Made by a program: the position numbers and the translations under genes. DNA of 64,000 nt from a virus, in IMG/VR virus record IMGVR_UViG_3300033145_000788, positions 1-64,000 of that record; one strand, 5' to 3'. A model generated the notes under the pieces. That model ran no database searches, had not been told where the DNA came from, and saw only the letters and a list, made by a program, of their open reading frames with translations. Positions 28,293 to 30,710 of this stretch are shown here, piece by piece; the first letter of the stretch is position 1, and every line of letters starts with the position of its first letter.

Positions 28293-30710
28293 TTTATTAC
28301 GAGTTTAATGGTGGGAAGATAATCCAAGGTCATGTATTGGAGATATTGAAAAGTATGGCATCGGAGTCTGTTAATTGTATTGTGACTTCGCCGCCATACT
28401 GGTGAATGCGGTCTGAGAAATTATGGCCTTGAGCCGCAGGTGTGGGATGCGAAAGAAGGATGTCAGCATGAGTGGGGGGACGGGAAAATAATTAATCGAG
28501 GTCATCCAGGAGATAAATCAACATTGGTTGGAACTCAAACCGCAAACATATCTAAGGCAGCGGGTAATCAGGGCCAATTCTGTTTCCTTTGTGGCGCATG
28601 GCGGGGTTCCTTGGGGCTTGAGCCTACGCCTGATTGTGGAAGGCCCCTTATGGAATTGAGAGATGATCTTACAGATAAGGAAAAAGAATATGTTTTACAG
28701 GAATTAAAGAATGAGGGGTTGCTTTAATGTTTTGCGGGCAGAATGATTGCATTTTGTGGAGCCACATACCGGGCAACAATATTTATCCCGGCATTTTGGA
28801 CAATATTTACGCCCATTTTTTATTGAAAATTTTTTACCACAAGCAATACAAATTTTGGGTTTCCTTTTGTATAAAAAAACTTCTGGACGTTTCATTTTTT
28901 TGTGGGCTTTACGCTTTTGTTTTTCGCTTATTTTATTTCCCATTAAGGCTTTTGAGATTTTTCTTTTTGTTTTTTCTGAACAGGGTTTACCAAGGGTTGT
29001 TGGTTTGCCTTTTCTTGATTCAGAAATTTTTCTCTATAGTGTATAGAAATGCAAGAAAAAATTACATTACCAGAATATAAAGTTCCATTCTATTTGCGCA
29101 AATATTTTCAACCCAAGTTGGATAATTGTTATATTTGTCATCTTGTGGGTATTTTCAGGGAAATAAAAAGAGTATTGAGAAAGGATGGCACGGTCTGGTT
29201 GAATATGGGGGACAGTTATGCTTCTGGTAAGGGTTCATGTTTTAATCCGGGCGGCGGAGCAAATTCCCTCGAGGGTCATGCAAAATTAAAAGCGCATGGA
29301 GCATATAAATTAAACAGACCGAATATATCTGACCTCGAGGCGATGGGCCTCAAACCTAAAGATCTTTGTATGATACCTGCTCGTTTAGCCCTGGCCCTGC
29401 AAGCCGAGGGCTGGTGGTTGAGAAGTGCAATAACGTGGTGTAAGGGTTCTCCCATGCCTGAAAGTGTTAAAGATAGGTCGACTAGTGCAACAGAGATGAT
29501 TTTTTTATTAACAAAATCTATGAAATATTATTATGATTCATTGGCCGTTTCGCAACCGCGTGCGGCGGGGGCTACAGATTTCACATCTTTTGGCCGTGCC
29601 GCTTTGGCTCCAAAATTTTCGGCCACAATTCATACAGAAGATATCTCGTTTAACGGAGGGGGGTTTTTGGATTTTGGTCAATCTAAGATATCCATCAGCA
29701 ATTCTATGACAACGAATACACAGAGACTCCAGATTGTCAATATGGTTGGCTTCAATATAAGAGTTGAAGTTTCGGAAGGGAATTTTATGATGAACATGAA
29801 TAGTCGTGACCTCTTGAGTCTTTCCGCAGATTTGGCAGGTAAAATTATCTCGTTTCAAAGCAATTTTTCTTTGGGTTCTCCAATTAGGTCCCTTGTATTG
29901 GATTTGCCCGCCTCGCCAAGTGGGGCTATTCTTACCAGTCATATTGATGCTGATCCACTTCCCAGTACATTTTTGGGAGCAAAAATTTCTTTTATGGAGT
30001 GCGCTTTTATACCTGAAAAATTCTTTGCCGCAAATATCACAATGAACTTTAATCAGTTTCGTGCGACCCTTTTTATTTGGACTTCCCTTCCGTCTTCCCA
30101 TAGTGTTGTTTCCTTTCACCCTAAGAATAATAAAAATATAATAGAAAGTCAAGGAAGAAATTTATGGAATTGGTGGTTAATAAATCCGCAGCCCTTCCCG
30201 GACGCCCATTTTGCGGTATTCCCTGAAAAATTAGTTGAACCTTGTATTAAGGCGGGGACGTCCGAAAAGGGTTGCTGTCCTGAATGCGGTGCGCCGTGGA
30301 AAAGAATAGTGAAAAAAAACAGAACCTTTGAAAGCGGGTCTGGAAAAAGTGGGAATATGCCTATTGGTAAAAGGGGGTCTAATCTTCAGGGTGACGGTGA
30401 GACGCTTGATATTAGGAGGGGGGTTGTTGTTTATACTCAAACCGTTGGATGGAAACCGGGTTGTAATTGCAAGAAGGATCCTGTTCCTTGTGTTGTGCTT
30501 GATCCTTTTGGCGGGGCCGGGACGGTTGGGGTGGTGGCCTATAAATTGAACCGGGATTTCTTGCTGATTGAATTGTCCCCGGAATATTGCGAGATGGCGA
30601 AAAAGAGAATAGGGAAAACGGTCAAGAGATTTGAATCGGGATTCGGATTGATGAGACCGAAGCCGTTGAAAAAAAAGAAACCCAAAAAGTTAGGATTGCT
30701 GGATAAATGA
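28289..30710 (+). CDS. DNA N4/N6 methyltransferase in three pieces (28289-28405; 28410-28727; 29049-30710) with two antisense endonuclease inserts
   Basis: Piece 1 ends VTSPPYW*; piece 2 GLRNYG...GSLGLEPTPDC; piece 3 CHLVGIFREIKRVLRKDGTVWLNMGDSY...HFAVFP...DPFGGAGT. Confidence 0.8.
28704..29033 (-). pseudogene. 5'-truncated homing-endonuclease remnant (NUMOD3-like repeats + Zn ribbon)
   Basis: RKISESRKGK, CSEKTKRKISKALMG, then CIACG..YCPKC..CPVCG; no nuclease domain or SD-linked start. Confidence 0.65.
29538..30101 (-). CDS. HNH endonuclease nested antisense within the methyltransferase ORF
   Basis: CDICG..FCSQKC, NSPTWRGG, RDNFTCQICG..IHVHHKIP..NLESLCIRCH; SD GAAAGGA 9 nt upstream of ATG 30101. 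Confidence 0.9.
   Translation of the reverse strand: MGRRKGSPNKKGRTKLIKVHCDICGKEFFRYKSALHKRNFCSQKCTGKWISINMTGKNSPTWRGGQIQYKGPNWRTQRKIALKRDNFTCQICGKTQEVTTIHVHHKIPFRNFNSYIEANHIDNLESLCIRCHRIADGYLRLTKIQKPPSVKRDIFCMNCGRKFWSQSGTAKRCEICSPRRTRLRNGQ
30124..30152 (-). promoter_or_regulatory. Sigma70-type promoter for antisense HNH gene
   Basis: TTGACT (30152-30147), 17 nt, TATTCT (30129-30124). Confidence 0.65.

Follow-up and report, generated by a model that had tools for sequence, protein, structure and literature searches.

A minus-strand HNH endonuclease gene nested in codon register within the open frame of a viral DNA methylase

How can an endonuclease gene lie backwards inside the open reading frame (ORF) of another enzyme, without intron or intein, and leave that frame open? 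The question is raised by a locus in IMG/VR virus record IMGVR_UViG_3300033145_000788, a complete virus record of 98,976 bp with direct terminal repeats, whose first 64 kb (64,000 nucleotides) were analysed here and are called the window. In it, a minus-strand ORF at 29538-30152 (204 aa from a TTG) is nested in a plus-strand methylase ORF at 29049-30710. A previous sequence-only reading had described the nested ORF as a 187-aa HNH endonuclease gene in exact codon register with the methylase, and both its coordinates and this description were confirmed. The central features are as follows.

29049-30710, plus strand: methylase C-half ORF, 553 aa (PF01555, E 1.6e-29)
29538-30101, minus strand: HNH endonuclease gene, 187 aa, including the TGA stop at 29538-29540 (PF01844, E 5e-8)
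30102-30152, minus strand: HNH 5' leader with a promoter-like site (9/12 promoter match) and a Shine-Dalgarno sequence; relatives have similar elements

We consider it likely that a backward HNH cassette is tolerated in the methylase by stop-free read-through, without intron or intein. In the proposed mechanism, a mobile HNH homing-type cassette of ~0.6 kb would have inserted backwards and in codon register into the linker of a beta-class N6/N4 methylase in this 99-kb uncultured phage, equipped with neither intron nor intein for self-removal. It would persist because the HNH gene, lacking TTA, CTA and TCA, never places a stop in the opposite strand, and ribosomes on the methylase would read through it, adding ~200 residues of an unconserved, probably disordered loop. 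The read-through protein would be made and active, and the HNH enzyme would cut insert-free alleles (homing), as judged from the sequence. The gene would also have been divided by a second HNH cassette, of which a decayed antisense remnant is left, into N- and C-halves with conserved tail and leader peptides, and a mini-insert after the catalytic SPPY would require a +1 shift or a short ribosomal hop.

The likely start of the HNH gene is the ATG at 30099-30101, which gives 187 aa (coding 29541-30101; stop 29538-29540). Its product scored 33.3 bits with the PF01844 HNH profile, compared to a curated cut-off of 21.4 (E 5.4e-8), and matched the HNH structure PDB 5H0M (E 2.5e-5). In an alignment of five HNH proteins, C89, C92, H105, N119, N123, C128, C131 and H132 were invariant, and the beta-beta-alpha-metal residues (HH...N...H) as well as the paired CxxC zinc ligands are intact. 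A complete HNH homing-type cassette on the opposite strand, as had been proposed, is borne out by this PF01844 match and by the sporadic occurrence of the insert over the methylase tree (see below). A single-protein HNH scan of viral contigs returned one weak locus only.

Identical triplets serve both frames, that is, the two genes lie in antisense register 0 (29049 and 30099 are both 0 mod 3). Because the triplets are shared, a plus-strand stop can arise only from an HNH codon TTA, CTA or TCA, and none of the three occurs among the 8 Leu and 11 Ser codons of the HNH gene. The methylase frame is open for 205 codons from YYYD (end 29537) to GRNLWNWW (start 30153), in agreement with the ~205 codons given by the sequence-only reading for 29538-30152, and the insert reads S-LAVSQ...IIESQ|G in that frame. 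The last ~8 HNH codons are antisense to native methylase sequence (S-LAVSQPR). At the other end, the 51 nt separating the HNH ATG from GRNLWNWW are occupied by the promoter-like TTGACT (30152-30147), a 17-nt spacing and TATTCT (30129-30124), followed by the Shine-Dalgarno sequence AAAGGA at 30116-30111, all on the minus strand upstream of the ATG; read on the plus strand, this leader (30102-30152) becomes ...KNNKNIIESQ of the methylase read-through. Of five relatives, four also have promoter-like elements 5' of the HNH start, with differing sequences, and AAAGGA is kept in three; examples directly 5' of the ATG are TGgTATACT with AAAGGA (L029), TGgTAAAAT with AAAGGA (L030) and TTGACA-17-TATTAT (L031).

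To what extent could such an open frame be fortuitous? TTA, CTA and TCA together make up 2.2% of window codons, which gives P ~0.011-0.016 for their complete absence from the HNH gene, and other window genes also show in-register antisense open runs of 200-313 codons. When the expectation was instead drawn from free-standing HNH relatives of similar GC, their codon usage predicted 4.8 forbidden codons (P = 0.0033); this external control was applied as permutation of the gene's own codons is uninformative for register 0, where the counts cannot change. Among 35 free-standing HNH controls (GC 0.40-0.62), only two had zero forbidden codons and the usual count was 3-15, compared to none in the window gene. 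The depletion predicted by the sequence-only reading relative to free-standing HNH genes was thereby found, and its view that the absence is unlikely by chance held at P 0.0033-0.016, with relatives likewise open. Taken for a single gene, the evidence against chance is moderate.

The decisive evidence comes from comparison, for which loci were selected by HNH similarity and hence blind to the state of the methylase frame. In the five nearest loci (L029-L033, HNH 54-62% identical), the HNH gene is in every case nested antisense at the same methylase site in register 0, with the methylase frame open across the insert or up to the contig end. The individual probabilities of zero forbidden codons in these five were 0.011, 0.028, 0.00015, 0.062 and 0.10, next to the 0.0033 of the window gene; HNH relatives at 54-62% identity also include P0121/P0122. 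Synonymous sites among these HNH genes are saturated (pS 0.64-0.88, with pN 0.25-0.38), so the loci constitute near-independent trials. The protein database added eight methylases with a homologous insert, bringing to thirteen the methylases, at most 54% identical to each other, that carry it at the same site; plus-strand stops, for which the sequence-only reading had advised a check, were found in none of them. At another site, inside the AHFATFP motif, four loci (L094, L096, L100, L106) contain a distant HNH gene in antisense register 1, where stops come from codon pairs; here, too, the methylase is open (P 0.01-0.07 each).

The two strands evolve under different constraints. In the HNH frame, dN/dS was 0.15-0.25 and amino-acid identity 51-67%, whereas the same aligned codons gave dN/dS 0.97-1.30 and 28-45% identity in the methylase frame; on these per-strand values, the HNH product evolves as a normal protein does, under purifying selection, and the methylase strand is held only to the absence of stops. 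An AlphaFold prediction of the C-half was consistent with this picture, with pLDDT >90 in the methylase core blocks and mostly 40-55 in the insert (residues 164-368). The stop-free methylase frame is kept by selection rather than by codon usage, and ~560 bases would be protein-coding on both strands, for two unrelated reasons.

A separate group of loci (L058 878-1537, L062 1822-2556, L063 385-1023) has AT-rich HNH genes (GC 0.32) with zero TTA, CTA or TCA codons (P ~5e-5), which lie antisense inside a different methylase, immediately behind the DPP of its motif IV. Their host frame is open across the HNH gene and stops at its far end.

The methylase itself turned out to be less simple than the intact ORF assumed by the sequence-only reading, as the gene is split, contains the remnant of a second antisense HNH gene and carries a mini-insert at SPPY, a motif that lies upstream of the ORF. 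The C-half ORF matches PF01555 (N6_N4_Mtase) in two blocks, at HMM (hidden Markov model) positions 51-198 and 221-390, and runs from a conserved 26-aa leader through the core to YYYD, the read-through segment at 29538-30152 and GRNLWNWW...AHFAVFP...DPFGGAGT to its stop. Motif I (DPFxGxGT) is present as DPFGGAGT, the closest solved structure is CcrM (6PBD), and the methylase core retains every invariant residue of its family. The cassette sits in the variable linker that immediately precedes the conserved GRNxxxW, and in the window it replaces nearly all of the native linker. Catalytic motif IV is absent from the 553-aa ORF, its SPPY being located at 28388-28399 in a separate upstream frame and ORF. 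The upstream part of the locus comprises four further features.

28289-28405, plus strand: methylase N-half, first segment (HMM positions 6-34; TGA stop 28403-28405)
28400-28406, plus strand: stop-containing mini-insert TGGTGAA, 7 nt, directly 3' of SPPY
28407-28727, plus strand: methylase N-half, second segment (Zn-ribbon region, GSLGLEPTPD, 30-aa tail, TAA)
28704-28943, minus strand: remnant of a second HNH cassette, 79-aa ORF (59% identity to the P0126 C-terminal tail)

The N-half begins at a GTG (28289) that overlaps the clamp-loader stop and runs to TSPPY (28385-28399), W (28400-28402) and the TGA. After a +1 shift, it continues as (C)GLRNYGLEPQVWD..., through the zinc-ribbon region and GSLGLEPTPD into the 30-aa tail (28635-28724) and the TAA at 28725-28727. 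An AT-rich spacer (28728-29048, GC ~0.30) parts it from the ATG at 29049, and seven stops lie in the methylase frame across 28635-29126. The minus-strand 79-aa ORF in this region aligns over 69 aa with residues 99-167 of the PF01844 protein P0126 at 59% identity (E 8e-30 pairwise, 1e-19 against the database); it corresponds to the C-terminal zinc-ribbon tail of the HNH proteins P0126/P0127, the catalytic half being gone, and it holds 3 TTA/TCA codons. Sequence comparison thereby identifies 28704-28943 as a second HNH cassette, likewise antisense, of which decay has left a remnant. Terminal repeats of this spacer insert were searched for, and short repeats at chance level were all that appeared.

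A similar layout was found in a viral contig (L244, 2346-4696), where an intact same-strand HNH gene of the P0126-type subfamily lies between two methylase ORFs. The two methylases are cut at the same position (LGLEPTP|), and the N-half tail and C-half leader align between them, while the methylase cores are only ~35-45% identical. A complex model of the L244 halves gave an ipSAE of 0.84 against 0.00 for the best control, with tail and leader in the modelled interface, at least 81% of contacts shared between runs and a partner pLDDT of at least 70; 51 of 78 solved complexes attain the ipSAE mark used, as do 2 of 108 mismatched pairs, and the pass may reflect likeness only, the halves belonging to a fold with solved single-chain structures. 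The tail motif (..LRDDLT.E...VL.EL...G) also ends the N-halves in L019 (5781-5861), L036 (1383-1466) and L042 (2233-2301), at a different cut site (HMM position ~240) and adjoining HNH cassettes, which suggests that the tail seems to travel with the element. L031 and L032 have the whole methylase, SPPY included, in one ORF.

Directly after SPPY, the 7-nt TGGTGAA at 28400-28406 brings in a stop and moves the frame by +1, after which the methylase continues. The identical TGGTGAA is present in L162 and L184. A pattern scan of viral contigs (SPPY, 1-8 nt, WG) yielded 12 genuine methylase sites, at each of which a stop codon immediately follows SPPY or SPPYW; the inserts take the forms TGAC/TGAT, TGGTGAA/TGGTAAA, TGATTAG, TGGTAACG/TGGTGACG and TGAAGTAG, and are 4, 7 or 8 nt long, never in frame. 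Apart from the insert, the methylases concerned have their full length, and their HMM matches reach E 1e-143. In the HNH-selected loci, the same spot holds TGAY in L006, L010 and L037 and TAG in L094. Mini-inserts of 3-8 nt were recorded, besides the window, in L006, L010, L037, L094, L134, L160, L162, L165, L183, L184, L188, L203, L221 and L222, and a stop-containing mini-insert occurs in at least 16 otherwise intact viral methylases. We regard it as a candidate recoding site, which ribosomes might pass by a programmed +1 shift or by a short hop (from UGG onto the next UGG/UGC, or from UAY onto UAG); the predicted junction peptides are SPPYWGLRNYG for the hop and SPPYWECGLRNYG for the +1 shift. 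In two genes with a TGAC mini-insert, a lone in-frame stop additionally lies between methylase HMM positions 145 and 158 (L160 1899-1901, L230 480-482).

Several observations weigh against stop-free read-through of a living methylase. The SPPY is cut off from the read-through ORF by the stop/frameshift and by the stop-rich spacer; if neither break were overcome, the window methylase would be dead, its open frame no more than a leftover of recent selection. Of the thirteen methylases with the insert, eight come from the protein database, where only open frames could appear, and about 8 of ~20 loci with HNH gene and methylase are not read-through (L036 and L042, which are split, and L037, L048, L090, L109, L034/L035 and L044). 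In addition, promoter-like matches of the quality seen upstream of the HNH gene (9/12) are not above shuffled sequence (6 found vs 5.5 expected); of the promoter and Shine-Dalgarno sequence claimed by the sequence-only reading, both are thus present as written, and the promoter match does not exceed background. L036 and L042 can be read as split layouts rather than wrecks, because the same tail motif ends their N-halves.

One alternative is that the methylase is a dead gene, the 553-aa ORF being the longest open stretch of an endonuclease-riddled pseudogene and its open frame an accident of codon usage. The scarcity of forbidden codons in the window (2.2%), the long in-register antisense runs in other genes, the stop/frameshift after SPPYW and the seven in-frame stops at 28725-29048 all fit such an account, and the upstream stops were at first taken in this sense, an interpretation dropped after the conserved tail and leader and the recurrent mini-insert had come to light. 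Chance, however, amounts to 0.3-1.6% for the window gene alone, and the frame is independently open in 12 divergent relatives with saturated synonymous sites. The methylase core, moreover, keeps all invariant family residues, and the breaks are recurrent and structured, with a conserved tail and leader in one case and a stop mini-insert in 12/12 interrupted, otherwise intact relatives in the other. We therefore consider a dead gene very unlikely. The host methylase gene is probably alive, in view also of the uninterrupted ORFs of L031 and L032, of the tail and leader conserved in L244 and of the complex model of the L244 halves.

Distribution of the insert bears on whether the cassette still behaves as a mobile element. 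Insert-bearing methylases occupy at least 7 places on a methylase tree built from the core with the variable region removed; the tree was made with FastTree and has local supports only, which makes the following values approximate. The window methylase falls within a clade of insert-free enzymes (97%), and P0002 pairs with the insert-free P0097 (99%). In L032, the methylase is only 25-31% identical to that of the window, while the HNH protein is 51-54% identical. The insert is scattered over the methylase tree as expected of a mobile element. A further alternative is a domesticated cassette, whose antisense transcription or inserted loop would regulate or retarget the methylase and be kept for the benefit of the phage. 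Its position is the usual variable region of beta-class methylases, where it replaces nearly all native linker, and the HNH gene is on the opposite strand in all 20 of the 20 methylase-holding loci of the HNH-selected sample; against this, the loop sequence is not conserved (dN/dS ~1), the insert is sporadic among close methylase relatives, and the HNH protein keeps its catalytic residues under purifying selection as a nuclease. We judge domestication, too, to be very unlikely.

The weakest alternative, which we hold to be the least probable of the three, is that unrecognised splicing, whether by a ribozyme that shares its sequence with the HNH coding region or by an atypical process at the protein level, removes the insert, so that no loop is ever present in the methylase: endonuclease genes can reside in group I introns, the same methylase family hosts true inteins (L029) and splicing could not be fully excluded by the ShiLan authors for their related system (described below), but an Rfam scan of 28000-31000 found no intron family (group I/II) at E up to 10, only ~50 nt of the insert fall outside the HNH ORF, and the methylase-frame peptide is neutral, has a low-confidence fold and lacks intein termini. 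RNA splicing also does not explain the conserved open frame, because a spliced insert would not need to be free of stops. A Pfam scan of the window insert revealed no Hint domain, and its termini are not intein ends (C/S/T...HN-C/S/T); on the absence of intein ends and intron core, Rfam, Pfam and the insert termini agree with the sequence-only reading.

The intein-bearing relative deserves a brief description. In L029 (190-3345, minus strand), a 1051-aa methylase ORF contains a canonical LAGLIDADG intein (CLSGG...LAGLYIAEG...THN|S, at DIIW|SKPNPMPES). After ALQQ, the same ORF holds another in-frame insert, this one with a LAGLIDADG-like motif; it also contains the antisense HNH gene, and has no stop.

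Stop-free read-through of a backward HNH cassette has a published same-strand counterpart, and the splicing-free parasitism inferred by the sequence-only reading is in this respect not a new idea. The ShiLan domain, or 'hidden HNH', of mycobacteriophage DNA methylases is an HNH gene inside a stop-free methylase ORF (Gosselin et al. 2023, PMC9957025; Arsenault, Gosselin and Gogarten 2025, PMC11855218), a layout that we saw directly in Mycobacterium phages Violet (gp57) and Lamina13 (gp61/gp62). As in the window, the HNH gene lies wholly within a phage PF01555 methylase ORF that stays free of stops, has no intron or intein signature, is sporadic, and has been proposed to be translated as a tolerated loop; the window HNH and the ShiLan hidden HNH share 33% identity. 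The ShiLan HNH, however, is on the same strand in the +2 (third) frame, has no recognisable ribosome-binding site and occurs in actinophages, whereas the window HNH is on the opposite strand in codon register, has its own promoter-like site and Shine-Dalgarno sequence, and belongs to uncultured non-actinophage viruses. Antisense, reverse or complement arrangements are never mentioned in PMC11855218, and our literature searches found no paper on an antisense form of the hidden HNH. The window case is an opposite-strand variant of the published hidden HNH principle; the stop-selection test and the per-strand dN/dS are new. A ShiLan-like arrangement was also noted in an IMG/VR contig of an uncultured virus (L026 4881-6743), in which a 620-aa methylase ORF carries a same-strand, out-of-frame HNH (5404-6060) at the site ESVT|DRxT.

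Other known systems resemble parts of the locus. In Aeromonas phage Aeh1, mobE splits nrdA into two ORFs, and assembly depends on the new terminal tails that these have gained (Crona et al. 2011, PMC3045599). The window likewise has an enzyme split at an endonuclease slot into halves with tail and leader, conserved in L244; unlike Aeh1, its host enzyme is a methylase, and of the intervening endonuclease a decayed, antisense remnant is left. An assembly function of the window tails, suggested by the L244 model, would parallel that case. Inteins with homing endonucleases in phage methylases share with the window insert an in-frame selfish insertion at conserved sites in the same methylase family, whereas the latter lacks a Hint domain, intein ends and a conserved peptide sequence. 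Free-standing phage HNH proteins (Geobacillus virus E2 HNH, PDB 5H0M; Bacillus phage Sophrita; halovirus) are of the same family and have flanking zinc ribbons, but their genes lie between genes and have normal TTA/CTA/TCA counts.

A wider and more tentative proposal, which we hold to be possible rather than probable, is that three splicing-free survival modes coexist in this one methylase gene, namely antisense read-through, fission with portable assembly tails, and recoding at the SPPY mini-insert; it presupposes that the methylase halves assemble and that the mini-insert is bypassed. If all were functional, phage methylases would possess a widespread and undescribed repertoire for accommodating insertions through translation and dual coding, a new programmed recoding site among them. 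The opposite-strand case extends the 'hidden HNH' idea and adds to the published work a numerical demonstration of selection on stop absence only in the host frame, together with purifying selection on the HNH frame. Homing endonucleases would then not need introns or inteins for invading essential genes, and automated annotation will systematically overlook such endonuclease genes. The locus lends itself to clean experiments on the amount of junk loop that a beta-class methylase will bear, and the split halves and the SPPY mini-insert provide two further testable accommodation mechanisms.

Besides the nested HNH gene, the plus strand carries all credible genes of the window. A blastn search of the methylase locus against 50,697 phage records gave no match. 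The locus is flanked by the following two genes.

27336-28292, plus strand: clamp-loader gene, upstream neighbour of the methylase locus
30707-34039, plus strand: DNA polymerase III alpha gene, downstream neighbour of the methylase locus

Further upstream, a 426-aa minus-strand ORF (24842-26122) spans two plus-strand genes; such a run is in keeping with how seldom GC-rich genes here use TTA, CTA or TCA, and the ORF probably does not represent a gene. A uracil-DNA glycosylase superfamily domain (PF03167, residues 956-1097) forms the C-terminal end of the 1110-aa DNA polymerase III alpha ORF.

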